In this document: in pieces, positions 37,597-53,520 of the stretch
Numbering within the stretch: the stretch's first letter is position 1
Layout: every line of letters begins with the position of its first letter
Assembly: GCA_003141555.1 (NCBI GenBank)
Contig: PLMN01000012.1
Coordinates: forward strand, 139,487 to 203,486
Length of the DNA: 64,000 bases
Source: Candidatus Aminicenantes bacterium
Lineage (GTDB): Bacteria > Acidobacteriota > Aminicenantia > Aminicenantales > UBA4085
Direction of reading: 5' to 3'
Program-made: the position numbers and the translations under genes
The notes under the pieces: model-generated
Told to the model about the DNA's origin: nothing
Seen by the model: the letters and a program-made list of their open reading frames with translations, nothing else
The model's database searches: none

Positions 37597-39183
37597 ATGA
37601 AAAAGCTGAACAGGGTTTTATGGTTATGTCTATTCCTGGCTGCTCTTACGCCCGTGTTCTCGCAGTCCGGCATCGTTCGGGGGCAGGGGATGAAAGTGGG
37701 CTCCGCGTATTTAGCCACGAACATCCATGTTACGCTCAACCCCTACGGCATGGCCCCGCTTGCGGCCTTGGCGGAGTTCACGACCCAGTTCCCTTGCGAC
37801 GTCATGGTCCAGGTGCAAGGCGACATTCCGATCAACAAGGACTTCAAGGACAACAGCACCTCCCATTCCATCCCGATCGTCGGACTGTATCCCGGCCAGG
37901 TGAACTCGGTCGTCCTGACCCTCTACCGTCATCATGGCGATCCGGAGATCCAGACGCTCTCGATCCTGACGGCCCCTCTTCCCGCCTGGTTTCCGACGAT
38001 CGAGATCAATACCGCCGTTCCCGCCCTCATGGAGCCGGGCTTCAATGTCTGCGATTTCGCCTACACCACGGGCACGGGCGTCATCGTCGATCCGTACATC
38101 TTCGACGCCGAAGGCCAGGTCCGGGCTTATTTCGACTTGTCGAATACGCCGGGGCAGGCCTTCCCCTTCGAGCGGATGGCGAACGGGAACTTCATCTTCG
38201 GCGTCGGGCCGTCGATCTACGAGATCGACATCATGGGCAAGATCCGGAACAAGCTCACCTTGCCCGGCTACGGCTTCCACCACGACATCCGGGAGATGCC
38301 CGATGGAAGCCTCATCGCCAACGTGAACAAGGACGGCACCCAGATCATCAACAGCACGGGCGTCGTCAACAGCATCGAGGACCGTATGATCCAGATCAAC
38401 CGGACGACCGGGGCCATCATGGGTGAATGGGACATGCGGGCCCTGCTCACCGTGAGCCGCAATGAGGTCATCAACAACACCGGCGATTGGTTCCACATGA
38501 ACGGAATCTGGTACAGCGTCCCGGACGATTGCTTCATCATCTCGGGCCGTCACCAGGCCGTGATCAAGGTCACGCGCGACAACAAGCTCAAGTGGATCCT
38601 GGCCGGCCACGACGGCTGGGGGAACTCCGGCTGGGACGGATCGGGCCCCAGTCCCGCGCCGTATCTCCTCACCGCCCTCGACCCCAACGGCAATCCGGAA
38701 CCCGACATCGTCCAGAACGGCGAGGCCGCCGCCGCCGACTTCGACTGGACCTGGGGCCAGCATTGTCCCAGCCTTTTGCCGAACGGGGACCTCTTCTGCT
38801 TCGACAACGGCTTCCGCCGCTGGTTCCAGGGCATCGGCGGCTTGTACTCCCGCGGCGCGGAATTCGCCATCGACGAGAAGGCCATGACGGTCCGGCAGAT
38901 CTGGCAATACGGCGCGGATCGAGGAGTCGAGACGTATTCGACGATCATCAGCTCCGCCGACCGCCTGCCGATCACCCAGAACCGCCTGATCTCGCCCGGA
39001 ATCGTCCAGATTCCGCCCGGGAGCACTGCTGTTTGCTATTCCAAGATGATTGAGGTCACGTATCCGGCCGGGCAGATCGTCTTCGAGGCCACCTCCCATT
39101 TCAAGAACCTGCTGTCCCAGACGGCCGGCAACGGGGGATTCGACCTGACCTATCGCTCGCACCGGATCCCGTCCCTTTACTGA
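37597..39183 (+). CDS. Aryl-sulfate sulfotransferase (ASST)-like beta-propeller protein
   Basis: Signal peptide. Motifs resembling the ASST family (FHHDIREMPDGS, GDWFHMNGI). Confidence 0.5.
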   Translation: MKKLNRVLWLCLFLAALTPVFSQSGIVRGQGMKVGSAYLATNIHVTLNPYGMAPLAALAEFTTQFPCDVMVQVQGDIPINKDFKDNSTSHSIPIVGLYPGQVNSVVLTLYRHHGDPEIQTLSILTAPLPAWFPTIEINTAVPALMEPGFNVCDFAYTTGTGVIVDPYIFDAEGQVRAYFDLSNTPGQAFPFERMANGNFIFGVGPSIYEIDIMGKIRNKLTLPGYGFHHDIREMPDGSLIANVNKDGTQIINSTGVVNSIEDRMIQINRTTGAIMGEWDMRALLTVSRNEVINNTGDWFHMNGIWYSVPDDCFIISGRHQAVIKVTRDNKLKWILAGHDGWGNSGWDGSGPSPAPYLLTALDPNGNPEPDIVQNGEAAAADFDWTWGQHCPSLLPNGDLFCFDNGFRRWFQGIGGLYSRGAEFAIDEKAMTVRQIWQYGADRGVETYSTIISSADRLPITQNRLISPGIVQIPPGSTAVCYSKMIEVTYPAGQIVFEATSHFKNLLSQTAGNGGFDLTYRSHRIPSLY

Positions 39184-39293
39184 CGGGCGGGGCGGTCGAT
39201 TTCCCGCCGCGCGCCGCCCGGGTTGATTTTCAGCCCGTTGTCCTTTATGCTGGCCTTGCCCGCGTTTCGGGCCTTGAGCTCGCCATCACGCCC

Positions 39294-40634
39294 ATGAACG
39301 GACCATTGAACATCCTCGTCGTCGACGACGAAGCCAACATTCGGAGGACCCTGTCGGTCTATCTGGAAACCGAAGGGCACCGGGTCGTCGGCGTCGGCAA
39401 TTCCCGGGACGCCCTGGCCGAGGCGCGGCGCCGCTCGTTCGATCTCGCGTTCGTCGACCTGCGCCTCGGGACTTCGGACGGAATGGATCTCATCCCCGCC
39501 CTCCTGGCCGCGACGCCGTGGCTGAAGATCGTGGTCATCACCGCCTTCGCCTCGATCGACACGGCGGTCGAAGCCATCCGCCGCGGCGCGACCGATTACA
39601 TCCCCAAGCCGTTCACGCCGGCTCAGATCGGCCTGTCCGTCCGGAAGGCGTTCGAGATGAGGACGCTCGAGCAACGCGTGGCCACCCTCCAGGAAGATCT
39701 CGTCCGGACGAGGCCGGAGTTCGACTTCGCGAGCGCCCATCCCGCCATGAGGAAAGCCGTGGAGCTCGCCCGCCAGGCGGCGGCCTCGGAGGCGACGATC
39801 CTTCTCCGCGGAGAGAGTGGGACGGGAAAGACCGTCCTGGCCCGGGCGGTCCACGCCTGGAGCCCGCGGGCCGCGCGTCCGTTCGGCGTCGTGTCCTGCC
39901 CCGCCTTCTCGTCGGAGCTCCTGGAAAGCGAGCTTTTCGGCCATGCAAAAGGCGCATTCACGGGTGCGGTTCGGGAGAATCCCGGCCGCATCGCCGTCTG
40001 CGAAGGGGGCACGCTCTTCCTCGACGAGATCGGGGATCTGCCGCTCGGGCTCCAGCCGAAAATCCTGAGATTCGTCCAGGACCGGGGGTACGAGCGCGTG
40101 GGCGATCCTGTCCCGCGGCGAGCGGACGTGCGCCTGATTGCCGCCACGAACCTCGACCTCGAGCGCGCGATGAAAGAGGGCCGCTTCCGGGAGGACCTCT
40201 ACTACCGACTGGCCGTCATTCCCATCGATCTCCCTCCCTTGCGGGAACGGCCGGACGATGTGGAGGCTCTGGCCGGCCGGCTGCTGGCGTTTTATGCCCG
40301 GGCCAACCACCGGACCTTTGCCGGATTCTCGCCCGAGGCCTTGCGCGCGCTCCAGAGCTATTCCTGGCCGGGCAACATCCGGGAGCTCAGCAACGTCATC
40401 GAGCGGGCGGCCATCATGTGCCGGACCGACCGCATCGGGATCGAATTCCTCCCTGCCGGGCTGCAGCCCGGGGAGTCCGCACCGAAGGTCGGCGATAGGA
40501 TCTCCCTGGACAAAGTCGAGGAACAGCACATCCGCAAGGTTCTCGCTTCCGCGAAGTCCCTGCAGGAAGCCGCTGACATTCTTGGGATCGACCAAGCCAC
40601 CCTCTGGCGTCGCCGCAAAAAATACGATATCTGA
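39294..40634 (+). CDS. Sigma54-dependent Fis-family response regulator (NtrC-type: REC plus AAA+ plus HTH)
   Basis: REC domain (ILVVDDE...D54). Sigma54-interaction motifs GESGTGKT and GAFTGA. C-terminal Fis-type HTH. Confidence 0.9.
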   Translation: MNGPLNILVVDDEANIRRTLSVYLETEGHRVVGVGNSRDALAEARRRSFDLAFVDLRLGTSDGMDLIPALLAATPWLKIVVITAFASIDTAVEAIRRGATDYIPKPFTPAQIGLSVRKAFEMRTLEQRVATLQEDLVRTRPEFDFASAHPAMRKAVELARQAAASEATILLRGESGTGKTVLARAVHAWSPRAARPFGVVSCPAFSSELLESELFGHAKGAFTGAVRENPGRIAVCEGGTLFLDEIGDLPLGLQPKILRFVQDRGYERVGDPVPRRADVRLIAATNLDLERAMKEGRFREDLYYRLAVIPIDLPPLRERPDDVEALAGRLLAFYARANHRTFAGFSPEALRALQSYSWPGNIRELSNVIERAAIMCRTDRIGIEFLPAGLQPGESAPKVGDRISLDKVEEQHIRKVLASAKSLQEAADILGIDQATLWRRRKKYDI

Positions 40635-40784
40635 CCTTTCTCCCGCCGGATTTCCGCCAACTAACTTATTTTTTGCGTTGCAAAATTCAATGTTATTTTG
40701 TATCGCCCATTGCATAATGCAATATGGGGTGTTTTAAATAGTGTTTATTTTACTTATATTCAGATGGTTACCGACGCATCCGCT

Positions 40785-40800
40785 TGGCATGGGACTTGCA
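40785..40800 (+). promoter_or_regulatory. Sigma54 (-24/-12) promoter TGGCAT-N5-TTGCA
   Basis: The CTTGGCATGGGACTTGCATTG match lies about 25-40 nt upstream of the kinase start. Upstream palindromes TTGCATAATGCAA (40717-40729) and TTTTGCgtTGCAAAA are candidate enhancer sites. Confidence 0.5.
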
Positions 40801-40822
40801 TTGTAAATAGACGGCGAGGAGT

Positions 40823-42673
40823 ATGAATATGCTTGGAATTCGTCAAAAAGTCATCCTTGGTTTTGCCGGCCTGTTAATCATCATCCTGGCCATCGGCGTC
40901 CAAAGCATCGTGACCCTGACCGGCTTGGGAGAATCGATCGATGTCATCTTGAGGGAAAACTACCTGAGCGTCATCGCCTGCCAGGAGATGAAGGAAGGTC
41001 TCGAGCGGATCGACAGCGGCCTGCTTTTCACTCTCCTCGGCGACCGGGCCCAGGGCGAAGATCTCATCCTCAAAAACGAAGCCGTGTTCGAGAAGGCCCT
41101 CCAGACCGAGCTGAACAACATCACCGTGCCGGGGGAAGGCAAGACGGCCGAAAGGCTCCGGGGCCTTTATGCCACGTACCGGGACACGCTGCCCCAGGCC
41201 GTCGCCGCGGATCGGCCCCTGGCCCTGCGCCACGATGCTTATTTTTCATCGCTCTTCCCTCTGTTCGGTCAAATCAAGGCGGCGGCCGAAGAGATCCTCC
41301 AGATGAACCAGCGGAACATGAGCGAGGCGAACGACCGGGCGCGCCTGAGCGCCTCCCAGGCCCGAAGCGGCATGTATCTCCTCCTCGGCTTGTGCACCCT
41401 CATCGCCATCGCGTTCATGCATTTCACCGGCCGCTGGATCCTGAGGCCCGTGAAGCGTTTGACCCTCTCCGCGGACGAGATCCGGCGGGGAAACCTCGAT
41501 CTCGTCGTCCCCAGCGATTCTCATGACGAGATTGGAACTCTGGCGGAATCGTTCAATGCGATGGCCGCCAGCCTGCGCGAACTCCGCCGGACCGACCAGG
41601 CTCGTCTCCTCCGCGTCCAGCGCGCGACACAGGAGGCCTTTGACCGGCTCCCCGATGCCGTCGCGGTCGTCGACCTCGAAGGCCGCGTCGAGGTGTCGAC
41701 CGAATCGGCCAAGACCGTCTTCGGCCTCCGGCCGGGCGCGCCGATCTTCGATTTGCCGTACGGGCTGGCCGATTACTTCAAGGAAGCGCTGGCGGAAGGC
41801 CGGCCCGTTCCGGCCGAATCCCAGGCGCCGATGATCCAACGGTTCGTGGGCGGAGAGGAGCGCTTCTTCCGCCCGGAGGCGGTTCCCATCCGGGACGCCG
41901 ACCGGCAGCCGACCGGAGCGATTTTCGTTCTCCACGACGTCACCCAGCTCCGCCAGCAAAACGAGCTGAAGACGAGCGTCATCCGCGCGGTTTCCCACCA
42001 GCTCAAGACGCCCATGACGTCCATCCGGATGGCAATCCACGTCCTCCTCGAGGAAAAGATCGGAAGCTTGAGCGAGAAGCAGGCCGAAGTCCTCTTGGCA
42101 GCGCGCGAAGACAGCGACCGGCTCCAGGAAATCTTGAGCAATCTCCTCGATATCGGCCGAACGGAGTCGGGCAAGGCCGAGGTCTACAACTATCAGTCCT
42201 TCTCCCCGCAGTCGCTGGTTATGGACGCCTTGGAACCGTTCCGGCGGACGGCCCAGGAGAAGGGCATCGCCCTGGGAGTCGAACTCCGCGGCAACCTTCC
42301 CGACGTCTGGACGGACCGGACCCGCACCAGTCACGTTTTCGCCAACCTCCTCTCCAACGCCATCCGCCACACGCCGGCGGGCGGGCGCCTTTTCCTCGCG
42401 GCAAAAGAGGAAGAGGACGTCGTCCGGTTCGTGGTTTCCGATACGGGGGAAGGTATCCCGGCCGAGTTCGTGGGCCATGTTTTCGAGCCGCTGTTCCGCG
42501 TCCCCGGCCGCGATTCCGCTGGCGGCCCGGGGCTCGGCCTAGCCACCGCCAAGGAGATCGTCGAGGCCCAGGGAGGGACGATCTCCGTCGAAAGCCGGGA
42601 GGGGAAGGGGACGACGTTCTCGTTCACCCTTCGCCGGACGGATCGGATCGATTCCAAGGAGGTTTCCCAATGA
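40823..42673 (+). CDS. Sensor histidine kinase (periplasmic sensor, HAMP, PAS-like, HisKA, HATPase_c)
   Basis: Two TM segments flank a ~150-aa loop. H-box AVSHQLKTPMTSI. N, G1 and G2 boxes (LLSNAIRHT, DTGEGI, GGPGLGLA). An alternative start at 40829 has better RBS spacing. Confidence 0.85.
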   Translation: MNMLGIRQKVILGFAGLLIIILAIGVQSIVTLTGLGESIDVILRENYLSVIACQEMKEGLERIDSGLLFTLLGDRAQGEDLILKNEAVFEKALQTELNNITVPGEGKTAERLRGLYATYRDTLPQAVAADRPLALRHDAYFSSLFPLFGQIKAAAEEILQMNQRNMSEANDRARLSASQARSGMYLLLGLCTLIAIAFMHFTGRWILRPVKRLTLSADEIRRGNLDLVVPSDSHDEIGTLAESFNAMAASLRELRRTDQARLLRVQRATQEAFDRLPDAVAVVDLEGRVEVSTESAKTVFGLRPGAPIFDLPYGLADYFKEALAEGRPVPAESQAPMIQRFVGGEERFFRPEAVPIRDADRQPTGAIFVLHDVTQLRQQNELKTSVIRAVSHQLKTPMTSIRMAIHVLLEEKIGSLSEKQAEVLLAAREDSDRLQEILSNLLDIGRTESGKAEVYNYQSFSPQSLVMDALEPFRRTAQEKGIALGVELRGNLPDVWTDRTRTSHVFANLLSNAIRHTPAGGRLFLAAKEEEDVVRFVVSDTGEGIPAEFVGHVFEPLFRVPGRDSAGGPGLGLATAKEIVEAQGGTISVESREGKGTTFSFTLRRTDRIDSKEVSQ

Positions 42674-42753
42674 CGGATTTTATCCTGGTCCTGGCCATTG
42701 TCGTACTGTTCTGGCTCGGCGCTCTCTACGTCCGGGCGTGCGACAAGCTGTAA
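42670..42753 (+). CDS. 27-aa hydrophobic peptide translationally coupled to the kinase (KdpF-like or leader peptide)
   Basis: ATGA overlap with the kinase stop. Sequence MTDFILVLAIVVLFWLGALYVRACDKL. Confidence 0.35.
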   Translation: MTDFILVLAIVVLFWLGALYVRACDKL

Positions 42754-42758
42754 CTCCC

Positions 42759-42842
42759 ATGTTCGAACTCATCGCCCTCCTCGCCGGCCTCTTGCTTATC
42801 GGCTATTTGATCTTTACGGTCCTCCGACCGGAGAAATTTTAA
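42759..42842 (+). CDS. kdpF: KdpF, K+-transporting ATPase small subunit
   Basis: MFELIALLAGLLLIGYLIFTVLRPEKF has the typical KdpF length and C-terminal LLRPEKF-like ending. It lies immediately upstream of kdpA. Confidence 0.6.
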   Translation: MFELIALLAGLLLIGYLIFTVLRPEKF

Positions 42843-42857
42843 AGCGATAGGTGACCC

Positions 42858-44585
42858 ATGAATATCCCCGGATGGATCCAACTGGTTCTCTTCCTCGGCG
42901 TCCTCTGCCTGCTGACCAAGCCGGTCGGCCTGCTCCTCAGCCGGGTCCTGGATCCCGAGGGCCGGACGCCGTTCGATCCCGTGCTCAAGCCCATCGAACG
43001 GCTCCTGTATCGTCTCCTCGGCGTCGATCCCAAAGCGGAACAGACCTGGAAACAATACGCCTTTTCGCTCTTCGCCTTCAGCCTGGTCGGCTTGCTGTTC
43101 ACCTATGCCGTTCTCCGCCTTCAACACATCCTGCCCTTGAACCCCCAGAAGCTCGGGCCGGTCCCGCCCGACCTGGCCTTCAACACGGCCGTCAGCTTCT
43201 CGACCAACACCAACTGGCAGAACTATGCGGGCGAGAGCACGCTCTCCTATTTTTCGCAGATGGTGGGGCTCGCTTTCCATAATTTCGCTTCGGCGGCCGC
43301 GGGCATCGCCGTGGCGGCGGCCCTCGTCCGCGGCATCGCCCGGCGTTCGGCAAAAACGCTCGGCTCCTTCTGGGCGGATCTCGTCCGGGTGAACCTCTAC
43401 CTCCTCCTCCCGATCTGCCTCGTCCTATCGCTCGTCCTGGTGTCGCAGGGCGTCATCCAGAATTTCCAGCCCGCCCGCCAGGCGGCCCTGATCGAGCCGG
43501 CCGGGACTGTCGCGACGCAGACGATCCCCCAGGGCCCGGCCGCCTCGCAGATCGCGATCAAGATGCTGGGCACGAACGGGGGCGGGTTCTTCAACGCCAA
43601 TGCCGCCCATCCCTATGAAAACCCGACGCCGTTCTCGAATTTCCTCCAGATGCTGGCCATCTTCCTCATCCCGGCCGGCCTGACCTATTACCTGGGGACG
43701 AGCGTCAAGAACCGAAGGCACGGCTGGGCGGTCTGGACGGCGATGGCCGTCCTGTTCCTGGCCGGGGTTTTCGTCTGCTGGCGGGCTGAAAGCGTCGGCA
43801 ATCCCCGCCTGACGGCTCTTGGCCTGGATTCGGCCGGCGGCAATATGGAAGGCAAGGAAGTCCGGTTCGGCATTTTCAATTCGAGCCTCTTCGCCACGGT
43901 CACGACCGACGCTTCCTGCGGCGCGGTCAACGCCATGCACGACTCGTTCACGCCCCTCGGCGGATTGGTCCCCCTGTTCAACATGCAGCTCGGCGAGGTG
44001 GTATTCGGGGGGGTGGGCGCGGGATTGTATGGGATTCTCGTCTTCGTCGTCCTGGCGGTGTTCCTGACCGGCCTGATGGTCGGGCGGACGCCGGAATACC
44101 TGGGCAAGAAGATCGAGGGTTATGACGTGAAAGTCGCCGTCCTGACCCTGCTCATCCTGATCTTCAGCATCCTCGGCTTCGCCGCTTGGGGCGCGGTCAG
44201 CCGGCCGGGGTTGGCCGGCCTTGGGAATAAAGGCCCCCACGGTCTGAGTGAGATCCTCTATGCATTCTCCTCGGCGACCGGCAACAACGGCAGCGCCTTC
44301 GGCGGATTGAGCGGGAACTCGCCCTGGTACAATGTGACCTTGGGACTGGCCATGTTCTTAGGCCGGTTTTTCATGATCGTTCCGGTCCTGGCCTTGGCCG
44401 GCAGCCTCGGCCGGAAAAAGCTCCTCCCTCCGAGTGAAGCGAGCTTTCCGGTGGGCGGGACGATGTTCATCATCATCCTGATCGGCACGATCGTCATCGT
44501 CGGGGCGCTGACCTACCTTCCCGCTCTGGCCCTCGGCCCGATCGTCGAGCATTTCACGATGTCCGGGTCGGCTCTCGTCTATTAG
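42858..44585 (+). CDS. kdpA: Potassium-transporting ATPase subunit KdpA
   Basis: KdpA N-terminus (WIQLVLFLGVL...) with a multi-TM K+ channel-like fold. 575 aa. Confidence 0.9.
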   Translation: MNIPGWIQLVLFLGVLCLLTKPVGLLLSRVLDPEGRTPFDPVLKPIERLLYRLLGVDPKAEQTWKQYAFSLFAFSLVGLLFTYAVLRLQHILPLNPQKLGPVPPDLAFNTAVSFSTNTNWQNYAGESTLSYFSQMVGLAFHNFASAAAGIAVAAALVRGIARRSAKTLGSFWADLVRVNLYLLLPICLVLSLVLVSQGVIQNFQPARQAALIEPAGTVATQTIPQGPAASQIAIKMLGTNGGGFFNANAAHPYENPTPFSNFLQMLAIFLIPAGLTYYLGTSVKNRRHGWAVWTAMAVLFLAGVFVCWRAESVGNPRLTALGLDSAGGNMEGKEVRFGIFNSSLFATVTTDASCGAVNAMHDSFTPLGGLVPLFNMQLGEVVFGGVGAGLYGILVFVVLAVFLTGLMVGRTPEYLGKKIEGYDVKVAVLTLLILIFSILGFAAWGAVSRPGLAGLGNKGPHGLSEILYAFSSATGNNGSAFGGLSGNSPWYNVTLGLAMFLGRFFMIVPVLALAGSLGRKKLLPPSEASFPVGGTMFIIILIGTIVIVGALTYLPALALGPIVEHFTMSGSALVY

Positions 44586-44594
44586 GGGACGAAT

Positions 44595-46616
44595 ATGATC
44601 GCCAAAACTCATTCGCTGTTCGATCGCCGGATCATCGGCCCGGCCGTGATCGATTCCTTCCGGAAGCTGAATCCGGTCTTTCTCCTCAAGAATCCGGTCA
44701 TCTTCGTGACCGAAGTCGGCGCGGCCCTCTGCACCCTGGCCGTGGCGTTCCGCGGGGCCGGCGAAGCGCCGGGATTCATCTTCCAGATCGCCCTCTGGCT
44801 CTGGTTCACCGTGCTCTTCGCCAATTTCGCCGAAGCCATGGCCGAGGGCCGGGGCAAGGCCCAGGCCGACGAGCTCCGCAAGGCTCGGACGCGGACCCAG
44901 GCCAGTTTGCTCCAGGCCGACGGTTCGGTCCGCATCGTCGCCGCGGAGGAGCTGCGAAAGGGCGACTTCATCGTCGTCGTCGCCCGGGAAGTCATTCCCG
45001 CGGACGGCGAAATTGTCGAAGGTGCGGCTACGGTGGATGAATCGGCCATCACCGGGGAGTCCGCCCCTGTCATCCGGGAAGCGGGCGGCGACCGGAGCGC
45101 CGTGACCGGCGGCACCCGGGTGCTGTCCGATCGGATCAAGGTCCGGGTCACGGCCAACCCCGGCGAGAGTTTCCTTGATCGGATGATCGGGCTGGTCGAG
45201 GGCGCCCACCGCCAGAGAACGCCGAACGAAATCGCCCTGACCATCCTGCTCGCGGCGCTCACGATCATCTTTCTGGTCGTGGTCATCAGTCTTCGGCCCT
45301 TCGGAACCTATTCGGGCGTGTCCTTGACCGTGACGGTTCTCGTGGCCCTCCTTGTCTGTCTCATTCCGACGACCATCGGCGGCCTGCTCAACGCCATCGG
45401 GATCGCGGGCATTGACCGGATGGTCCAGAAAAACGTCCTGGCCATGAGCGGCCGGGCCGTCGAGGCGGCCGGTGACGTCGACGTCCTTCTCCTGGATAAA
45501 ACCGGGACGATCACCCTGGGCGATCGCCAGGCATCGGCCTTCATCCCAGCGCCTGAGGTCACCGTCGAGGACCTGGCCAACGCGGCCCAGCTCGCCTCCC
45601 TGGCCGACGAGACGCCCGAGGGGCGGAGCATCGTCGTCCTGGCCAAAAAATACGGCTTCCGCGGCCGGACCATTTCCGAAATGCCCGGGGCCGTGTTCAT
45701 TCCCTTCTCGGCCCAGACGCGGATGAGCGGCCTGGATTTCGAGGGGCGCCGCATCCGCAAAGGCGCGGCCGTCGCCATCCAGGGATTCACCGGGAAGCCG
45801 ATCGCCGTTGAAGTCCAGGACGCGGTCAGCTACATCTCCCTTTCGGGCGGGACTCCGCTCCTCGTCGCGGACGGTTCGAATGTTCTAGGGGCCATCCATT
45901 TAAAAGACATCGTCAAGGGGGGCCTTCGCGACCGCTTCGAGCGATTCCGGGCCATGGGCATCAAGACGGTCATGATCACCGGGGACAACCGCCTGACCGC
46001 GGCCGCCATCGCCCGCGAGGCGGGCGTCGACGACTTCGTGGCCGAGGCCAAGCCCGAGGACAAGCTCACTTTGATCCGGCGGGAGCAGACGGCCGGCCAC
46101 CTCGTGGCCATGACCGGCGACGGGACGAACGACGCGCCGGCCCTTGCCCAGGCGGACGTCGGGATGGCCATGAACACCGGAACGCAAGCGGCCAAAGAGG
46201 CGGGCAACATGGTCGACCTCGACTCCAATCCCACCAAGCTGATCGAGGTCGTGGAGATCGGAAAACAAATGCTCATCACCCGCGGGGCACTGACGACGTT
46301 CAGCATCGCCAACGATGTGGCCAAGTATTTCGCCATCATCCCCGCCCTGCTGGTCGGCGTCTTCCCGGTCATCGCCCCGCTCAACATCATGGGCCTCCGT
46401 TCCCCGCAGAGCGCGATCCTGAGCGCGGTCATCTTCAATGCGCTCATCATCGTCGCCCTGATTCCCCTGGCCCTCCGTGGGGTGAAGTTCCGGCCTTTGG
46501 GGGCGGCCGCGCTTCTCCGGCGGAACCTCTTGATCTACGGCCTCGGCGGGCTCATCGCCCCCTTCCCGGGCATCAAGATCGTGGATATCATCGTGAACGC
46601 TCTCCATCTCGTGTGA
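44595..46616 (+). CDS. kdpB: Potassium-transporting P-type ATPase subunit KdpB
   Basis: DKTGTIT phosphorylation motif, [18 protein letters not shown] hinge and TGES motif. Confidence 0.9.
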
Positions 46617-46638
46617 GCGGGCGAAAGGCGGACGAACT

Positions 46639-47232
46639 ATGAAATCCTGGATTCGAGAGATTCGGACATCGCTCCGGGCAACGGCGGCCCTGGTGGTGCT
46701 TCTTTGCGGGCTTTATCCCCTGGCCGTCTGGGGGCCGGCCCAGATCCTCTTCCCGGCGAAGGCCAACGGCTCGCTTCTCGTTCGCGACGGAAAAGTCGTC
46801 GGCTCCGAGCTCATCGGCCAGGGATTCACGGGCGCGGGGTATTTCCATCCCCGTCCTTCGGCCGCGGGCGGTGGATACGACGCCCTGGCCTCGGGGGGCA
46901 GCAACCTGGGACCGTTGTCGAAAGACTTAATCGAAAGCGTCCGGGGGCGCGCGGCCGCCTATCGCGCCGAGAACGGTCTGGAGCCCGGCGCGGCGGTCCC
47001 GGCCGATGCCGTGACCGCTTCGGGCAGCGGACTCGACCCCCATATCTCGCTTCAAAACGCTGGCCTCCAGACTCCGCGCGTTGCCCGGGCCCGGGGCTTG
47101 ACCGAAGCCGCGGTCCGGGAGCTGATCGGATCATTGGCCGAAGGCCGCGACCTGGGGATCTTCGGCGAGGCGAGGGTGAATGTCTTGAAGCTCAATCTCA
47201 CCTTGGATGAAAAACGCGATGGCGGACGATAG
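46639..47232 (+). CDS. kdpC: Potassium-transporting ATPase subunit KdpC
   Basis: Single N-terminal TM. KdpC signature (GSGLDPHIS). 197 aa. Confidence 0.85.
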   Translation: MKSWIREIRTSLRATAALVVLLCGLYPLAVWGPAQILFPAKANGSLLVRDGKVVGSELIGQGFTGAGYFHPRPSAAGGGYDALASGGSNLGPLSKDLIESVRGRAAAYRAENGLEPGAAVPADAVTASGSGLDPHISLQNAGLQTPRVARARGLTEAAVRELIGSLAEGRDLGIFGEARVNVLKLNLTLDEKRDGGR

Positions 47233-48934
47233 GGCCAACGAGTTCCTGCAGCTGATCCGACAATCGCAGCGCGGACGTCTGAAGATCTATCTCGGCTACA
47301 GCGCCGGCGTGGGGAAGACCTACCAGATGCTCCAGGAGGGCCACCGCCTTAAGAGCGACGGCATCGATGTCGTGATCGGCCTGCTCGAGACGCATGGCCG
47401 GACGGCGATCGCCGAGCTGGCCAAGGGACTCGAAGTCGTACCGCGGCGCCGCCGGGATTATCGGGGGATCGCCGTCGAGGAAATGGACGTGGATGCCGTC
47501 CTAGCCCGAAAACCGCAGGTCGCCCTGATCGACGAGCTGGCCCACACCAACGCTCCCGGCAGCCGGAACCCGAAGCGCTATGAGGACGTGCTGGACGTGC
47601 TGGCCGCGGGAATCCACGTCATCACCACCTTGAACGTCCAGCACCTGGAAAGCCTTTACAACATCGTGGAGAATGCCGTCGGGGTCAAGGTGCGGGAACG
47701 GATCCCGGATTCGGTGCTGGTCGAGGCCGACCAGATCGTCGACGTGGATCTGGCGACCGAGGATCTCCGCAAGCGCCTGGAGGACGGCAAGATCTATCCG
47801 CAGGAGCGCATCGCGACCGCTTTGAGCAATTTTTTCATCCCTTCCAACCTCGAGAAGCTGCGAGAACTGACCTTGCGCGAGCTGGCCGCCCAGATCGATT
47901 TCCGCCGGAGGGAAGCCAAGAGCGAGGCGGGCGAGACCGAAGGGGACCAGGTGATGGTCTGCCTGAGCTCGCATGGCCCGAACAGCGAAAAGCTCCTCCG
48001 GTACGGTTCGCGTCTCGCCGGAAAGCTCAACCGCAACTGGTACGCGGTCTATGTCCAGACCCCTTCCGAAGAGGCCACGGTCATCGACGCGAAAGTCCAG
48101 CGCATGCTCTCGGATACGCTGACCTTGGCCAAACAGCTAGGCGCGCTCGTGTTCACCTACAAGGGGGAGAATATCGCGGATACGATCCTCCGCTTCGCCC
48201 GGGAATACCGCGTTGGCCACATCGTCGTCGGCAAGTCGGTCCCCAAGCCGGTTTGGAAGAGGATCGGCCGGAACAAGGCCGTCGTGGAGGACCTCATTGC
48301 TGAGGCGAGGGGGGTGACGGTGATCGTCGTCGATCCCTGCCCGGCCGTCGCGCCGGCCCTCGCCCGGCCCCGGCCGGAGGATGACCGGCGGGAAGAGGGG
48401 TTCGGGAAGGCGGACGCCGAAGGGCCGGAGGCAGCCCCCTCGGCGCCCATCGTGCGCGATCTGCTCAGCCCTTGGCTTTCCCCGCGGCGCATCGTCCTAT
48501 GGGGAGTCCCCGTCGCCAAAGAACAGGTCCTTCGGACGCTTGCCGAGACGGTCAAAAACGAAGACGGCGTTTCCGACCCGGAGAAGCTCTACGCGGACAT
48601 CCTGATCCGGGAGGAGCAGGGATCCACGTTCTTCAACGAGGGCGTCGCTTTCCCTCACGTCCGGGTCGAAGACCTGGCCGCTCCGGTCGTAGCCCTGGGA
48701 TTGACGCGCGGGGGCGTGGCGGATATCTCGACCGACAAGCCGATCGAGCTCGTCTTCCTCATCCTTTCTCCCGCCGGGAACCCTCCCCTTCAAGTGAAGC
48801 TGCTGGGGGCGGCGAGCCGGGCCGCCCAGAGCCGTCCTCTTCTTCAAGCCCTGCGCTCGGCGGAGACGCCCGACGAAGTCCTGCGGGCCATCGTGAACTG
48901 GGAAGCGTCGATTCCGCGCTCCCTGGGCGCGTAA
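47207..48934 (+). CDS. KdpD N-terminal sensor domain plus Usp domain fused to a PTS EIIA(Ntr)/PtsN-like domain, with no TM or histidine-kinase region
   Basis: The KdpD-N P-loop region reads LKIYLGYSAGVGKTYQM...ALIDELAHTN. The Usp domain reads VMVCLSSHGPNSEKL.... The C-terminal EGVAFPHVRVE...ELVFLILSPAGNPPLQVKLL... matches the PTS_EIIA_2 His-site pattern. Confidence 0.8.
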   Translation: MKNAMADDRANEFLQLIRQSQRGRLKIYLGYSAGVGKTYQMLQEGHRLKSDGIDVVIGLLETHGRTAIAELAKGLEVVPRRRRDYRGIAVEEMDVDAVLARKPQVALIDELAHTNAPGSRNPKRYEDVLDVLAAGIHVITTLNVQHLESLYNIVENAVGVKVRERIPDSVLVEADQIVDVDLATEDLRKRLEDGKIYPQERIATALSNFFIPSNLEKLRELTLRELAAQIDFRRREAKSEAGETEGDQVMVCLSSHGPNSEKLLRYGSRLAGKLNRNWYAVYVQTPSEEATVIDAKVQRMLSDTLTLAKQLGALVFTYKGENIADTILRFAREYRVGHIVVGKSVPKPVWKRIGRNKAVVEDLIAEARGVTVIVVDPCPAVAPALARPRPEDDRREEGFGKADAEGPEAAPSAPIVRDLLSPWLSPRRIVLWGVPVAKEQVLRTLAETVKNEDGVSDPEKLYADILIREEQGSTFFNEGVAFPHVRVEDLAAPVVALGLTRGGVADISTDKPIELVFLILSPAGNPPLQVKLLGAASRAAQSRPLLQALRSAETPDEVLRAIVNWEASIPRSLGA

Positions 48935-49005
48935 GTCGGGGGGAGCAATAAAGCAGATTTTCCGGCCTTAAAATTTCGTAAGATCAGCTCTGAAAGGGGA
49001 TGTCC

Positions 49006-49908
49006 ATGAAAAAACTTATTACCGCTTTCGCGGCCTCGGCGCTTTTCCTTGCTTCCGCAACGGTTTTCGCCCAAGCCTCTCCCGCCGATGAACCCAAATC
49101 GCCGTACACGTTTACCGGCAATATTTCCTTAGCCAGCCAATACATCTTCCGCGGACTCGCCCAGACCAACGGTTATCCCGCGCTCCAGGGAGGAATGGAT
49201 TTTTCCCATGCGAGCGGATTCTATGCCGGCATCTGGCTCTCCAACATTTCCTGGTTCACGGACCAGAACGCCAACATCAAGTCGGCCCCGGTTTCGCTCG
49301 CCTCGCCCGGCAGCGTCGGCGCCCCCTATGCGCCGAATCAAAGCAATGCGGCCAGCCTCGAGTGGGATTTCTACGCGGGTTTTAAGAACAGTTTTGCCGG
49401 CGGCAATTGGAACTATGACATAGGCATCATCCAGTACTACTACCCGGGCCGCTACGAAAACATCGGGGCCTACCGCAACCCAAACACGATCGAAATCTAC
49501 GGCTTGATCGGGTACAAATGGGTGTCCTTGAAGTATTCCAAAGGGATAAGCGCCACCACGTTTGGGGTTAACGATTCCAAGGGCGCCGATTATATTGACC
49601 TCTCCGCGACGATTCCCCTGGGCGAGAGTGGTTTCAACCTGTTGGCCCATGTCGGCAAATACAATTTTCCGGGCAAGGCCAATGTCGGATACTGGGGAAC
49701 CTCCGGCGGCAACAACGACTTCTTTGACTATACCGACTACAAGTTGGGGTTAACAAAAGAACTATGGGGCTGTGTCTTCGGATTCGCTTGGACGCATGCC
49801 AACACAAAGGACACCGCCCCAGATGGCCAGACGACCGCTTACTTGAACGCGTTTGGCAAGAACATCGGGGGCCATCGTGTCGGGCTGTCCGTCACAAAGA
49901 CCTTTTGA
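49006..49908 (+). CDS. TorF-family putative outer-membrane porin
   Basis: Signal peptide. Motif ...SQYIFRGLAQTNGYPALQGGMDFSHASGFYAGIWLSN is typical of the TIGR02001/TorF porin family. C-terminal F. Confidence 0.6.
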   Translation: MKKLITAFAASALFLASATVFAQASPADEPKSPYTFTGNISLASQYIFRGLAQTNGYPALQGGMDFSHASGFYAGIWLSNISWFTDQNANIKSAPVSLASPGSVGAPYAPNQSNAASLEWDFYAGFKNSFAGGNWNYDIGIIQYYYPGRYENIGAYRNPNTIEIYGLIGYKWVSLKYSKGISATTFGVNDSKGADYIDLSATIPLGESGFNLLAHVGKYNFPGKANVGYWGTSGGNNDFFDYTDYKLGLTKELWGCVFGFAWTHANTKDTAPDGQTTAYLNAFGKNIGGHRVGLSVTKTF

Positions 49909-50071
49909 TCTGGAGAATTCTCGAGAACTACCTCGAATGCGGCAGTCCATCCTGCGGGCTCGCCCGGCTCCGCCGTCGTCCGTAGATAGAAGGGCGAGCT
50001 GGAGGCTGGCCCTTGACTGGACTTTTCTCCCGATTCCGGCTAAATATGGACGAAGTTTCAAGGAGGACCCA

Positions 50072-50392
50072 ATGGCCGAACATCCCCTGAAGACGATGCA
50101 AAAACTCGATCCCGCGCTGATGAAGCACCTGGACGAATGCCAGGATCTGTTCTATGGCGAGGGGGCCCTGCCCAAAAAGGTCAAGCTCCTGATCGCCATG
50201 GCCTTCGACGCCGCCCACGGCGCCGATCGCGGCGTCCAGGCCCTGGCGCGGGCCGCGATGCGGGAAGGGGCGACGAAAGCGGAGATCGTCGAAACGATCC
50301 GGGTCGCCTATCACTTGACGGGCGTCGGGACGATCTACACGGCTTCGCTGGGCCTGCGGGAGCTTGTGGCCGAAACCACCCCCATCGTCTGA
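50072..50392 (+). CDS. Carboxymuconolactone decarboxylase (CMD/AhpD-like) family protein
   Basis: AhpD-like helical core (ALPKKVKLLIAMAFDAAHGADRGVQA). GGAGGA RBS. Confidence 0.7.
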   Translation: MAEHPLKTMQKLDPALMKHLDECQDLFYGEGALPKKVKLLIAMAFDAAHGADRGVQALARAAMREGATKAEIVETIRVAYHLTGVGTIYTASLGLRELVAETTPIV

Positions 50393-50581
50393 TCAGCCGT
50401 CGGCCTGCCGTTTGATGAAATCGACGACGGTCTCTTCCAGCGGCTTCAGGTCGATGATCTTGTTGATGACGTCGCGGTGAGTTTCGATCCTGTCGTCCCG
50501 GACCGTGGCCAGGACGCCTTTTGTCTTGCGGTCGATGACGTAGTAGACGTCGCCCAAGCGCAGGAACAGAAATCTCCTCAT
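50393..50581 (-). CDS. Small hypothetical protein (62 aa)
   Basis: Start MRRFLFLRLGD is preceded by GGGGAGG. An upstream TTGACA lies on the same strand. No family was recognised. Confidence 0.35.
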   Translation of the reverse strand: MRRFLFLRLGDVYYVIDRKTKGVLATVRDDRIETHRDVINKIIDLKPLEETVVDFIKRQADG

Positions 50582-50691
50582 CACCAACCTCCCCGCATTC
50601 ATGATGATCCGGCTTCCGGGCGAATGTCAAGAGATTTGCATCATGATGATCGCGCGCCGGGCTCGCTTTCATGGGCTTGGTTCCCGCCGCC

Positions 50692-50721
50692 TTGACACCC
50701 GTCGGCGGCAGGTCCTATAGT
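50692..50721 (+). promoter_or_regulatory. Sigma70 consensus promoter (TTGACA-N18-TATAGT)
   Basis: It lies 40 nt upstream of the ATG at 50761. Confidence 0.4.
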
Positions 50722-50760
50722 TCAAGAGCTTTGAGGTTGACGTTGCGAGGAGACATCACG

Positions 50761-53520
50761 ATGCGAAAGACGGCCCCCTGGATTCTCGCCCTGCTCCTGA
50801 TGAGCCGGGCCCTCGCCCTCTCGGGCGCGCCCCAGGTCCCCGCGCCCGAATCGGTCTTTGGCTTCAAGCCGGGGGCCGACATGAAGCTGGCGACCTACGA
50901 TCAGTCGATCGCGTATTTCAAACAGCTGGCCGCGGCTTCCCGGTGCGTGAGGCTCGTGGAGGCCGGGCGGACGAGCCAGGGGCGGATCGCGTATTTCGCC
51001 CTTGTTTCGAGCCCCGAGAACCTGATCCGGATCGATCAGTACCGTGAAATCGCCCAGCGCCTGGCCCATCCCGAGGGATTGACCGACGACGAGGCGCGCC
51101 GGCTGGCGCGCGACGGCCGGTCCTTCGTCCACATCGACGGCGGATGCCATTCGAGCGAGGTGGCCGGGGCCCAGATGATGCCTCAGCTCGCCTATGACTT
51201 GGTCCGGCGGGCCGACGAGCCCGAGGCCCGGGAAATCCTTGATAACGTGGTCTTCTTCCTCTGGCCGACCATGAACCCCGACGGCCAGCAGATGATCGGG
51301 GAGTGGCACTTGAAAAACCTGGGGACGCCCTACGAACAGTCCGGCCTGCCGCGCCTCTATCAGGAATACGTCGGCCACGACAACAACCGCGACGGCTACA
51401 TGCTCAACATGATCGAGTCGCGGATGATGGAGCACTTCTGGCGGCAATGGGAGCCGCAGATCGTCTATGTCCACCACCAGACGGCGCCGTTCCCGACGCG
51501 CATCTGGCTTCCGCCGTTCTCCGAGCCGGTGGGATTGGAGGCGCCCTACATCTCCTCGCGCGAGGTGAACATGATCGGCATGGCGATCGCCCAGGGCCTG
51601 GAGGAGCGGGGGATGGTCGGCGCGACCCACATGGGGACGAATTTCGACGCCTGGTATCCGGGCTATGTCGACTATGCGCCGATCTTCAAGAATATCCCGG
51701 CCTTCTGGACCGAGACGGCGGGCAACATGGCCATGCCGCGCGAGTACGCGCCGAACGACATCCCCGCGGGATTCCGGGACCTCCGGACCCAAAGCCTCTA
51801 CGTCAGCCCCTGGCCGGCGGGCTGGTGGCGCCTGGCCGACGCCGTGGCCTACGACGAGGCAGCTTCGTGGTCGGTGCTCGAATACGCGGCGAAATACCGG
51901 GAATCGCTTCTCTACAACCGTTATCAGGCCGGGCGGGACCAGATCGCGCGCGGGAGGAAATCCGGGCCGTTCGCCTACGTCGTCCCGCAGGACCAGCGCG
52001 ATCCGGTCGCGGCCGTCGAGCTCCTCCGCCGCCTCGCTTTCGCCGGGGTGCGCGTCTGGCAGCTCACGGCGCCGGCCGCGCTGGACGGGGTGACGTATCC
52101 GGCGGGCGCGTGGATCGTGCCCACGGACCAGGAATTCGCGGCGATGGCCCGCGAGCTGCTGGACGTGCAGAAATACCCCGACCTCCGCCAGTATCCGGGC
52201 GGGCCGCCGCTCCGGCCCTACGACGCGGCGGGCTGGACCCTGCCCCTCCAGATGGGCGTCAAATGGGCGGGCGTCGCGGCGCCGCTCGGCGACGACGTCC
52301 GATCCAACATGAAGCTCCTGGGGACAAAACCCGACCCGAAGGCCCGGCCCACGGCCTATAACCTGGAGCCGGCCGTCGACGCGGCGGTCTTCGACAGCGT
52401 CCCGGGCATCGGCTTCGACGCCAGCCCTTCGGCCGCGGCCATCATCCCCCCGCCGGGGAAGATCACTGGCTCGGGGCGGGCGCTCGCCGTGGACCCGGCC
52501 CAGAACAACGCCTTCCGCGCCCTTAACAAGGCCTGGAAGCAAGGCGGTCAGGTGGCGTTTCTCGCAGGCGGGCCGGGAGCCGAACCGAAATATCTCATCA
52601 CCGGGCTATCCGTCTCGGCGCAGGAGGAGATGGTCCGATCGCTGGCCCTGAGCGCCGAGCGGACCTCTCCGGGGGGCGTTCCGGTGAAGAAGCCCCGGAT
52701 CGGCCTGGTTCAGCCGTGGAGCGGAAGCCTGGACGAAGGCTGGACCCGCTGGCTCCTCGAGCGGTACGGTTTTGAATTCGTGACCCTTCACCCCGAGGAC
52801 TTCCACGCCCCGCTTCGGAACAAGGTCGACGTGGTCATCCTCGCCGATGATGTCCGGCTGCCCGTGGCGGGCGGCGGCGCGGCCCAGGGCGGGCGCGGCG
52901 GCGGAGGCGGGATGCCCCCGGAGGGCGGGCCGCCGACAGGGATGCCTCCCGCGGGCGGGCCGCCGGCCGGAGGGGCGGGGCAGATGGGCGGAGGACGGGG
53001 CGGCGCGCGAGCCGTCCGGCCCGAATATGCCTACGCGCTCACAAGCGAGGACCTGCAGGCGTTCGAGGCGTTCGTTCGCGGGGGCGGGACCGTGGTCTGC
53101 TTCAGCTCGGCCGCGCGCTTCGCGATCCAGCAGTTCAAGCTTCCCGTCAAGAACGGCATCGAGGGCTTGAAGTCCGAGGAGTTCTTCCTGCGCGGATCGA
53201 TCGTCAGCCTCGTCGTGGACACGAAACACCCGGTCATGGCCGGGATGCCCGAGAAGGCGGCTGTGTTCGTGGACGGAAGCCCGGTTTTCGACAGGCTCGA
53301 GGGCTTCAAGGGAACGGTCCTGGCGAAATATCCCGATACGGGCTCGCCTCTGTTGTCGGGGTGCCTGATCGGGGAGAAGTACGTCCAGGGGAAGGCGGCG
53401 GCGCTCGATGTCGAGCTCGATCAGGGACATATCGTCCTGTTGGGCTTCAAGCCGGAGTGGCGCGCCCAGCCCTTCGGGACGTTCCGCGTGGTGTTCAACG
53501 CCGCGCTCTACGGCAAGTGA
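50761..53520 (+). CDS. Secreted M14 family zinc carboxypeptidase with a C-terminal extension containing a Gly/Pro-rich low-complexity insert
   Basis: Signal peptide. Zinc-binding HxxE (GGCHSSEV). M14 core. A low-complexity stretch at 52861-53010. Confidence 0.75.
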   Translation: MRKTAPWILALLLMSRALALSGAPQVPAPESVFGFKPGADMKLATYDQSIAYFKQLAAASRCVRLVEAGRTSQGRIAYFALVSSPENLIRIDQYREIAQRLAHPEGLTDDEARRLARDGRSFVHIDGGCHSSEVAGAQMMPQLAYDLVRRADEPEAREILDNVVFFLWPTMNPDGQQMIGEWHLKNLGTPYEQSGLPRLYQEYVGHDNNRDGYMLNMIESRMMEHFWRQWEPQIVYVHHQTAPFPTRIWLPPFSEPVGLEAPYISSREVNMIGMAIAQGLEERGMVGATHMGTNFDAWYPGYVDYAPIFKNIPAFWTETAGNMAMPREYAPNDIPAGFRDLRTQSLYVSPWPAGWWRLADAVAYDEAASWSVLEYAAKYRESLLYNRYQAGRDQIARGRKSGPFAYVVPQDQRDPVAAVELLRRLAFAGVRVWQLTAPAALDGVTYPAGAWIVPTDQEFAAMARELLDVQKYPDLRQYPGGPPLRPYDAAGWTLPLQMGVKWAGVAAPLGDDVRSNMKLLGTKPDPKARPTAYNLEPAVDAAVFDSVPGIGFDASPSAAAIIPPPGKITGSGRALAVDPAQNNAFRALNKAWKQGGQVAFLAGGPGAEPKYLITGLSVSAQEEMVRSLALSAERTSPGGVPVKKPRIGLVQPWSGSLDEGWTRWLLERYGFEFVTLHPEDFHAPLRNKVDVVILADDVRLPVAGGGAAQGGRGGGGGMPPEGGPPTGMPPAGGPPAGGAGQMGGGRGGARAVRPEYAYALTSEDLQAFEAFVRGGGTVVCFSSAARFAIQQFKLPVKNGIEGLKSEEFFLRGSIVSLVVDTKHPVMAGMPEKAAVFVDGSPVFDRLEGFKGTVLAKYPDTGSPLLSGCLIGEKYVQGKAAALDVELDQGHIVLLGFKPEWRAQPFGTFRVVFNAALYGK

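Follow-up and report, generated by a model that had tools for sequence, protein, structure and literature searches.

A kdp locus lies at positions 39294-48934 of a stretch of 64,000 nt from a Candidatus Aminicenantes bacterium (contig PLMN01000012.1). This whole stretch is called the window here, and all coordinates below are window positions. The locus is made of eight tightly packed genes on the + strand, assigned through Pfam and NCBIfam, which encode the KdpFABC potassium pump together with a sigma-54-dependent response regulator, a sensor histidine kinase, a 27-aa peptide and a soluble protein in which KdpD-N and Usp parts are fused to an EIIA domain of the phosphotransferase system (PTS). 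Kdp regulation is usually taught as KdpD/KdpE, and in E. coli the OmpR-type KdpE acts at a sigma-70 promoter. An initial annotation of the locus had claimed that kdpFABC is controlled here by a sigma-54 two-component system, and not by an adjacent KdpDE pair. This claim is strongly supported by a conserved promoter preceded by two enhancer sites, by the packing of the genes, by the GAFTGA motif of the regulator, by the absence of an OmpR-type KdpE and of full-length KdpD at the locus and in 80 related loci, and by an experimental precedent in Desulfovibrio vulgaris. The genes, together with the porin gene that follows the locus, are listed here.

39294..40634, + strand: sigma-54-dependent response regulator, with receiver (REC), Sigma54_activat and Fis-type helix-turn-helix (HTH) domains (Pfam)
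40823..42673, + strand: sensor histidine kinase, transmembrane segment (TM)-periplasmic domain-TM-HAMP-PAS-HisKA-HATPase (Pfam, TM prediction); start probably at 40829
42670..42753, + strand: 27-aa single-TM peptide MTDFILVLAIVVLFWLGALYVRACDKL, an open reading frame (ORF) whose start overlaps the kinase stop codon (ATGA)
42759..42842, + strand: kdpF (Pfam Potass_KdpF PF09604, 1.6e-6), beginning 5 nt past the 27-aa ORF
42858..44585, + strand: kdpA (Pfam KdpA, 1.2e-235)
44595..46616, + strand: kdpB, P-type ATPase subunit, 63% identical to E. coli KdpB, TGES serine conserved
46639..47232, + strand: kdpC (Pfam KdpC, 3e-70)
47207..48934, + strand: fusion of KdpD-N, Usp, a Pro/Ala/Glu-rich linker and EIIA (PTS_EIIA_2) (Pfam, NCBIfam)
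49000..49908, + strand: putative outer-membrane porin of the TorF/Gcw_chp family (Pfam PF09694, 3.3e-51; NCBIfam TIGR02001)

Gene organization and the two-component system

The gene order given by the initial annotation, from the regulator and the kinase through the small peptide, kdpF, kdpA, kdpB and kdpC to the KdpD-N/Usp-EIIA protein, is found for all genes, on the + strand. The four pump genes are present in one operon and the ITGES motif of KdpB is retained in the alignment to its E. coli counterpart, as expected for a KdpFABC pump. Throughout the part that runs from kinase to fusion, neighbouring genes overlap or sit at most 22 nt apart, the start of the fusion gene lying inside the end of kdpC (47207 vs 47232). 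Such short distances leave no room for a separate kdpF promoter, and kdpFABC is thus expected to share a transcript with the kinase gene. The operon has one large gap, an AT-rich segment of 189 bp between the regulator and kinase genes.

Related loci were collected by scanning one genome per species with the Usp-EIIA part of the fusion protein. Relatives were found in 449 species genomes, and the best 80 were taken with 10-kb flanks. The closest relatives of the fusion protein belong to metagenome-assembled genomes named 'Candidatus Aminicenantes/Aminicenantales', and the cassette is carried by Aminicenantes, Krumholzibacteriia and Thermodesulfobacteriota, including complete Aminicenantes chromosomes (OY970261.1, OY969586.1, OY969762.1, OY969696.1, OY970122.1). 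Desulfomonile tiedjei and Syntrophobacter fumaroxidans are examples of carriers in culture. Among the loci with enough upstream DNA, the regulator, kinase, kdpA, kdpB and fusion genes are colinear in 49 of 54, and the kinase gene lies upstream of the fusion gene in all 54. Since the same order recurs in so many species genomes, this arrangement cannot be ascribed to chance.

Some loci show other arrangements. In L017 (6497-17010) and L029 (7169-20335), the fusion gene directly adjoins the kinase gene, and after this pair comes a second, divergent kdpABC that has a separate KdpD-N protein. In L057 (1856-7532) the regulator, kinase and fusion genes follow each other with no kdpABC between them. 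Judging from these three loci, the kinase-fusion pair behaves as a unit. Another variant is seen in a 'delta proteobacterium' genome (L027, 7807-9066), where a stand-alone Usp-DUF4118-GAF protein is encoded between kdpC and the fusion gene. This protein is the membrane and K+-sensing middle of KdpD devoid of any kinase, and KdpD appears to have been split into separate genes there. The gap between kdpC and the fusion gene is similar in L031, L035, L038 and L041.

The response regulator (446 aa) shows the Pfam domains Response_reg (1.1e-23), Sigma54_activat (4.7e-62), AAA_lid_14 and HTH_8. Its GAFTGA loop is intact (residues 220-225) and its Walker A motif reads GESGTGKT. The combination of a receiver, an AAA+ domain bearing both motifs and a Fis-type HTH is that of the bacterial enhancer-binding proteins of the NtrC family. 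The protein stays below every NCBIfam equivalog cut-off (AtoC, NtrC, ZraR) and reaches no named subfamily. Its orthologues are 64-77% identical and occupy the same position in 49/54 loci.

The sensor kinase (616 aa) has TM segments within residues 3-37 and 180-204, with a four-helix-bundle-like periplasmic domain of some 150 aa between them; the HAMP, PAS, HisKA and HATPase domains come next. Its orthologues are 49-67% identical. The true start is probably the ATG at 40829 rather than that at 40823, which is favoured by a GAGGAG 8 nt upstream and by the fact that the orthologues begin there. No KdpD-N, DUF4118 or GAF domain is detected in the kinase by Pfam; domain search and TM prediction agree thus with the periplasmic sensor and the lack of KdpD-N noticed at first. 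Conversely, the fusion protein has no TM, GAF or kinase domains, so that neither protein is a canonical KdpD. The kinase was also considered as one half of a canonical split KdpD, and this was rejected, since its sensor part and best-matching families (PnpS, WalK, PhoR) are not KdpD-like.

No full-length KdpD is found at the window locus or in the 80 related loci, and no OmpR-type (winged-helix) KdpE at the window locus or beside the cassette in these 80 loci. The matches of E. coli KdpE that were listed reflect receiver similarity only, covering at most residues 3-121 of 225, and fall mostly on the sigma-54 regulators themselves.

Promoter and enhancer sites upstream of the kinase gene

The gap between the regulator and kinase genes contains a succession of predicted elements, the sigma-54 consensus being taken as TGGCAC-N5-TTGCW.

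40678..40690, + strand: upstream activating sequence 1 (UAS1), predicted distal enhancer site TTGCAAAATTCAA, a TTGCA-N3-TGCAA palindrome with 1 mismatch
40710..40722, + strand: UAS2, predicted proximal enhancer site TTGCATAATGCAA, a perfect TTGCA-N3-TGCAA palindrome
40723..40784, + strand: AT-rich spacer with an integration host factor (IHF)-like element ATTCAGATGGTTA at 40758-40770, 2 mismatches to WATCAANNNNTTR
40785..40800, + strand: sigma-54 promoter TGGCATgggacTTGCA (-24 GG, -12 GC), near consensus, at most 1 mismatch

The promoter sequence is the sole match to the consensus with at most one mismatch in the 64 kb, and it is found on the correct strand, about 30 nt before the kinase start. 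UAS1 and UAS2 are the only TTGCA-N3-TGCAA sites of the window with at most one mismatch. They lie at about -107 and -75 from the promoter, 32 bp apart, and since a spacing of ~32 bp corresponds to three helical turns, both would face the same side of the DNA. As far as can be judged from its sequence, the whole layout is typical of enhancer-dependent sigma-54 promoters, whose activator sites, mostly in pairs, are placed roughly 80-150 bp upstream, often with an intervening IHF site.

The same elements are conserved in related loci from several phyla. In 47 of 60 loci a -24/-12 motif precedes the kinase start within 80 nt, usually at about -33 to -45, where the background rate would be 0.013 per 300 nt. 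A UAS site some 110 bp upstream of the -24 element occurs in most of these 47 promoter-bearing loci, and exactly two sites, at about -110 and -78, are present in 37 of them. Where at least two sites occur, their spacing is 31-33 bp in 37/39 loci (background 0.045 per 140 nt). The exact IHF consensus is observed in the spacer of 7/47 loci (background 0.0026 per 85 nt). Comparative genomics, which had been suggested from the start as a check, thus bears out both the gene order (49/54) and the position of the promoter (47/60).

The sigma-54 promoter sits before the kinase gene and not directly before kdpF, and the kinase gene would therefore be subject to positive feedback. The region 5' of the regulator gene gives a different picture, with a sigma-54 motif in only 1/42 loci and a UAS motif in 3/42. 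As its upstream region lacks both motifs, the regulator is probably expressed separately from the kinase-to-fusion unit.

The KdpD-N/Usp/EIIA fusion protein

The last protein of the kdp locus has 575 aa, with KdpD-N (2e-90), Usp and PTS_EIIA_2 (1e-18) domains in Pfam. It is soluble, with no TM segment predicted, and no GAF or histidine-kinase domain is detected. The database copy starts 4 residues downstream of the window ORF start. Silberberg et al. (2024, PMC11018627) described KdpD-N as an atypical serine kinase: under abundant K+ it phosphorylates the TGES serine of KdpB, Ser162, and so turns the pump off. The fusion family shows no variation in Walker A (G30...G36-K37-T38), Walker B (D109-E110) or R190, while Y39 stands in place of the W39 of E. 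coli. Since all its catalytic residues are invariant, the serine-kinase activity is argued to be retained, and the fusion most likely acts as an atypical serine kinase on the KdpB TGES motif, that is, as an off-switch of the pump.

The Usp part contains a partial c-di-AMP motif, C-x-S-x-[H/R/K]-x2-N compared with (A/G/C)-x-S-x-S-x2-N. The second serine of the motif is replaced by His in the window protein and by Arg or Lys in its relatives. With the motif partly present, c-di-AMP control of the fusion is neither assigned nor excluded.

A Pro/Ala/Glu-rich linker of variable length leads to the EIIA domain, which combines the PTS_EIIA_2 fold with a phospho-acceptor histidine and an active-site arginine. 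His484 is aligned to His73 of E. coli PtsN (PDB 1a6j). Both His484 and Arg468 are invariant in the fusion family, down to 27% identity in the EIIA part, within the pattern R-E-x2-[GAM]-[ST]-T ... P-H. The four best PDB matches of the domain are PtsN proteins (1.1e-9 to 4.3e-6), but its NCBIfam score for PtsN is far below the cut-off and slightly lower than that for fructose IIA. The domain may be described as PtsN-like only, and its link to the PTS as putative.

In public sources the fusion proteins go by the name 'PTS sugar transporter subunit IIA' or by 'two-component system sensor histidine kinase KdpD'. Judging from the domain content, both names are misleading, the protein being neither a sugar-transporter subunit nor a histidine kinase. 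No relevant description of a KdpD-EIIA fusion was found in the literature, and the supplements of a 2024 KdpD survey (PMC11018627) name neither EIIA nor PTS and contain no such class. This survey does tabulate a class 'KdpD domain, Usp domain x2'. Proteins corresponding to it are found among the cluster representatives (P0129, P0137, P0144, P0157, P0164); they have ~730-825 aa and two tandem KdpD-N domains, with Usp modules detected too.

Relation to known Kdp systems and interpretation

The initial annotation implied that sigma-54 control of kdp is new, which does not hold, as it was published in 2011 and 2015 for Desulfovibrio. When the targets of all response regulators of D. vulgaris were mapped, binding of the sigma-54 regulator DVU3334 was located upstream of kdpF (Rajeev et al. 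2011, PMC3333781), and this regulator was later filed under 'potassium uptake' (Kazakov et al. 2015, PMC4641369). Both systems have a sigma-54 regulator with GAFTGA, a non-KdpD kinase and a kinase-less KdpD-N/Usp protein within the kdp cluster. They differ in layout: the binding site of D. vulgaris is upstream of kdpF and its gene numbering suggests the order kdpFABC, kdpD', kinase, regulator, whereas the window locus opens with the regulator gene and has its promoter ahead of the kinase gene. An EIIA domain is lacking in the D. vulgaris KdpD' (~376 aa), unlike the fusion described here, and neither a 27-aa peptide nor porins have been reported there.

The enhancer sites can also be compared. 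The D. vulgaris site CGTTACATTTTGTAACG (TTACA-N3-TGTAA) is a 13-bp palindrome ~150 bp upstream of the operon, and the Syntrophobacter fumaroxidans site CGTTTCATTTTGAAATGT (TTTCA-N3-TGAAA; regulator Sfum_2622, kinase Sfum_2621) is found, as in the window, upstream of a kinase gene adjoining the regulator gene. All these palindromes share the N3 geometry, TTnCA-N3-TGnAA at about -150, with different half-sites (TTACA in D. vulgaris, TTGCA here); the likeness is one of context and site geometry. The EIIA fusion, the conserved 27-aa peptide and the porin genes associated with the cassette look undescribed, and the widely conserved promoter layout adds to the value of the system.

Similarities with the E. 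coli Kdp system concern the pump (KdpB 63% identical), the KdpD-N/Usp part with its Walker A and B motifs, and the association of an EIIA(Ntr)-type domain with Kdp control. In E. coli, P. putida and rhizobia, PtsN is indeed a binding partner of KdpD that influences Kdp. E. coli PtsN is reported to activate KdpD through its transmitter domain (Mork-Morkenstein 2017). The E. coli KdpD is however a single polypeptide with TM, GAF and DHp-CA parts, and PtsN, a protein of its own, has its gene beside rpoN, whereas here EIIA is fused to KdpD-N/Usp, the transcription factor is a sigma-54 activator and the sensor part of the kinase is unrelated. Because PtsN binds KdpD in those bacteria, the fusion looks like a covalent version of the PtsN-KdpD partnership.

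Deinococcus geothermalis DgKdpD, which is stimulated by c-di-AMP through its Usp domain (PMC11018627), and the NF038185 family ('KdpD-like non-kinase potassium sensor') are close in organization: soluble KdpD-N/Usp proteins devoid of histidine-kinase domains, encoded after kdpC and keeping the serine-kinase residues. The fusion differs from DgKdpD by its partial c-di-AMP motif and its additional EIIA domain, and it falls below the NF038185 cut-off. Transcription of kdp operons in the absence of KdpDE is also exemplified by Bacillus thuringiensis, where it is reported to be controlled by a c-di-AMP riboswitch (PMC6488665). Such an RNA switch contrasts with the situation here, an Rfam scan of 38500-50800 having revealed no riboswitch or other RNA family.

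The locus is read here as a self-contained sigma-54-dependent Kdp module with both transcriptional and post-translational control, to which we attach a probability of about 0.72. The regulator gene would be transcribed from its own promoter, apart from the kinase-to-fusion unit. The membrane kinase would phosphorylate the regulator, which would then bind the two TTGCA-N3-TGCAA sites, ~110 and 78 bp upstream of the -24/-12 element, and bending of the DNA over the AT-rich, IHF-like spacer would lead to activation of the sigma-54 RNA polymerase. The resulting single transcript would cover the kinase, the 27-aa peptide, kdpFABC, the KdpD-N/Usp/EIIA protein and perhaps the porin, with the kinase gene under positive feedback. 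As for the signal, we infer that it is low K+ or osmotic stress, presumably read by the periplasmic or PAS domain. At the protein level, the fusion would phosphorylate the TGES serine of KdpB and shut the pump off. The tethered EIIA could give an input to this control, either when its histidine is phosphorylated through a PTS relay or by docking on the transmitter of the kinase, as PtsN does on E. coli KdpD.

Several observations weigh against this model. The counts of sigma-54 motifs in the window are not significant, with 1 match at no more than one mismatch where 0.74 is expected, and 10 at no more than two mismatches for 14.6 expected. Because the window count alone is at chance level, the weight of the promoter rests on its position and conservation. 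The spacer contains a weak sigma-70-like match (TTTAAA-16-TATATT, 40733-40760), and some basal, sigma-54-independent transcription may start from there. The N-terminal part of the fusion scores 359.6 bits, below the NF038185 cut-off of 550. For the EIIA domain, the score is 36.6 bits where the NCBIfam PtsN cut-off is 138.7; the fructose IIA score is slightly higher (49.7 bits) and also below its cut-off, and the second conserved EIIA histidine is a glutamine in the window protein. Finally, tblastn searches with E. coli RpoN, NPr, HPr, enzyme I, RapZ and Hpf gave no match in the window and the 80 loci, and PtsN matched the EIIA domains only. No rpoN, enzyme I, HPr/NPr or ptsN gene is thus found in the window or in the 10 kb around the cassette in these loci, where the PtsN-style linkage to rpoN, hpf and ptsO is missing as well. 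The proposal of the initial annotation that every regulatory element has been rewired to the RpoN/PTS(Ntr) axis has therefore to be restricted. It stands for the sigma-54 regulation. It does not for the KdpD-N/Usp part, a kept ancestral Kdp regulator with its KdpB serine-kinase residues, and it goes too far for EIIA, whose PtsN score is sub-threshold and which has no PTS genes nearby, so that the PTS link is putative.

These observations have to be set against other explanations. One could imagine that a canonical KdpD/KdpE pair encoded elsewhere is the real K+ switch, acting on a sigma-70 promoter located between the regulator and kinase genes or within the 3' part of the latter, with sigma-54 as a second input. 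The sigma-70-like match in the spacer would fit, and so would the binding of three different regulators to the D. vulgaris kdp promoter (PMC3333781), the additional kdp operon, including a separate KdpD-N protein, that L017 and L029 carry, and the fact that a 64-kb window shows part of a genome. We consider this very unlikely, since neither an OmpR-type KdpE nor a KdpD transmitter accompanies the cassette in the 80 loci, where the KdpE matches lack the winged-helix part, and since the sigma-54 promoter and its enhancers are kept at fixed positions. Besides, a survey of 5495 species found short KdpD proteins without histidine-kinase domains predominantly in species devoid of KdpE (PMC11018627). 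A cue other than K+, such as nitrogen or carbon status or envelope stress, with Kdp belonging to a general stress regulon, is rather doubtful but somewhat less so. The kinase indeed lacks the TM/GAF K+-sensing module of KdpD, and DVU3305, a general-stress sigma-54 regulator that also binds the D. vulgaris kdp promoter, has a consensus (GTTGCA-N4-TGCAAC) containing TTGCA-N3-(A/T)TGCAA-like sequences, which resembles the UAS sites described here. The two UAS sites of the operon are however the only ones of the window with no more than one mismatch, and over 1.4 Mb of related loci such sites cluster before the kinase gene or before a porin gene inserted in the locus, which points to a dedicated local regulon. 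Some relatives also keep a separate Usp-TM-GAF protein in the operon as a possible K+ sensor.

Other alternatives concern the fusion protein. It might be mainly a co-sensor of the kinase, in a sort of split KdpD, feeding K+, nucleotide or PTS status through a contact between EIIA and the transmitter, rather than a KdpB kinase. DVU3335 (the kinase) and DVU3336 (KdpD-N/Usp) were indeed read as one kinase in two ORFs (Rajeev et al., PMC3333781), and the activation of E. coli KdpD by PtsN mentioned above would provide a precedent. The long flexible linker before EIIA suits a separate partner, and the kinase and fusion genes stay adjacent where the cassette kdpABC is missing or replaced (L017, L029, L057). 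Such a main role is less likely than not, the invariance of all serine-kinase catalytic residues speaking for a retained kinase activity, although both roles are compatible. EIIA could also stand outside any phosphorelay, as a structural or ligand-binding appendage in organisms devoid of enzyme I and HPr, its PTS(Ntr) likeness being ancestral. The lack of PTS genes near the cassette, the sub-threshold scores and the glutamine at the second histidine position are in favour of this explanation. It is nevertheless improbable, since the phospho-acceptor histidine and the active-site arginine remain invariant down to 27% identity, which is unexpected for a non-catalytic domain, and since a putative mannose PTS has been reported in one Aminicenantes genome.

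More tentatively, the self-contained sigma-54-dependent module may be extended by considering the protein as a 'Rosetta-stone' fusion. The link between PtsN and Kdp known from Proteobacteria would then be ancient, in these anaerobic lineages a PTS-type histidine signal reflecting carbon or nitrogen status could be wired into the KdpB serine kinase and/or the sigma-54 kinase, and the peptide and the porins would be further parts of Kdp.

According to the 2024 survey (PMC11018627), the KdpD-N/Usp serine kinase is all that many species retain, KdpE being absent, which raises the question of how kdpFABC is transcribed there. This locus and its relatives offer one answer, a dedicated sigma-54 two-component system with a defined enhancer and promoter in uncultured anaerobes. 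They extend a little-noticed Desulfovibrio finding to Aminicenantes, Krumholzibacteriia and Thermodesulfobacteriota, and the EIIA fusion gives a testable handle on the link between the PTS and potassium homeostasis, which is debated even in E. coli.

Small peptide, porins and neighbouring genes

The 27-aa ORF is translationally coupled to the kinase gene through the ATGA overlap. Homologues with the pattern M-x-D-[hydrophobic stretch]-...-CERL are encoded between the kinase gene and kdpF in ~35 of 52 loci, in several phyla, and belong to no Pfam or NCBIfam family. The peptide may be a Kdp subunit that has escaped notice, or a modulator of the kinase.

The 65 nt that separate the porin gene from the fusion gene contain no + strand terminator, and the porin gene is possibly the last one of the operon. 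A TorF/Gcw_chp porin at this place is observed only in the window and in L001, from the same organism. In L010 (1055-2635), a gene for an OmpL-like (BBP2) porin stands between those of the regulator and the kinase, and L021 (842-2322) has a 392-aa ORF placed likewise. A second full enhancer pair with its sigma-54 promoter is found ahead of the insert in L010, L021 and L055 (1147-1271). Taken together, the peptide and the porins may represent unrecognised accessory parts of the pump.

The other neighbours are not related to potassium (a GH38 mannosidase, an arylsulfotransferase, peptidases), and the window contains no tRNA genes. The segment 33388-39183 is a glycan-degradation neighbourhood, where a GH38 alpha-mannosidase of 1369 aa, ending in chitobiase/Fn3-associated domains, precedes an arylsulfotransferase (ASST). 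It is separated from the regulator gene by a hairpin and a T-rich tract (39219-39237). Further upstream (30897-32297), a 466-aa protein joins an N-terminal PilZ domain (c-di-GMP-binding) to a type II/IV secretion ATPase (T2SSE) domain.

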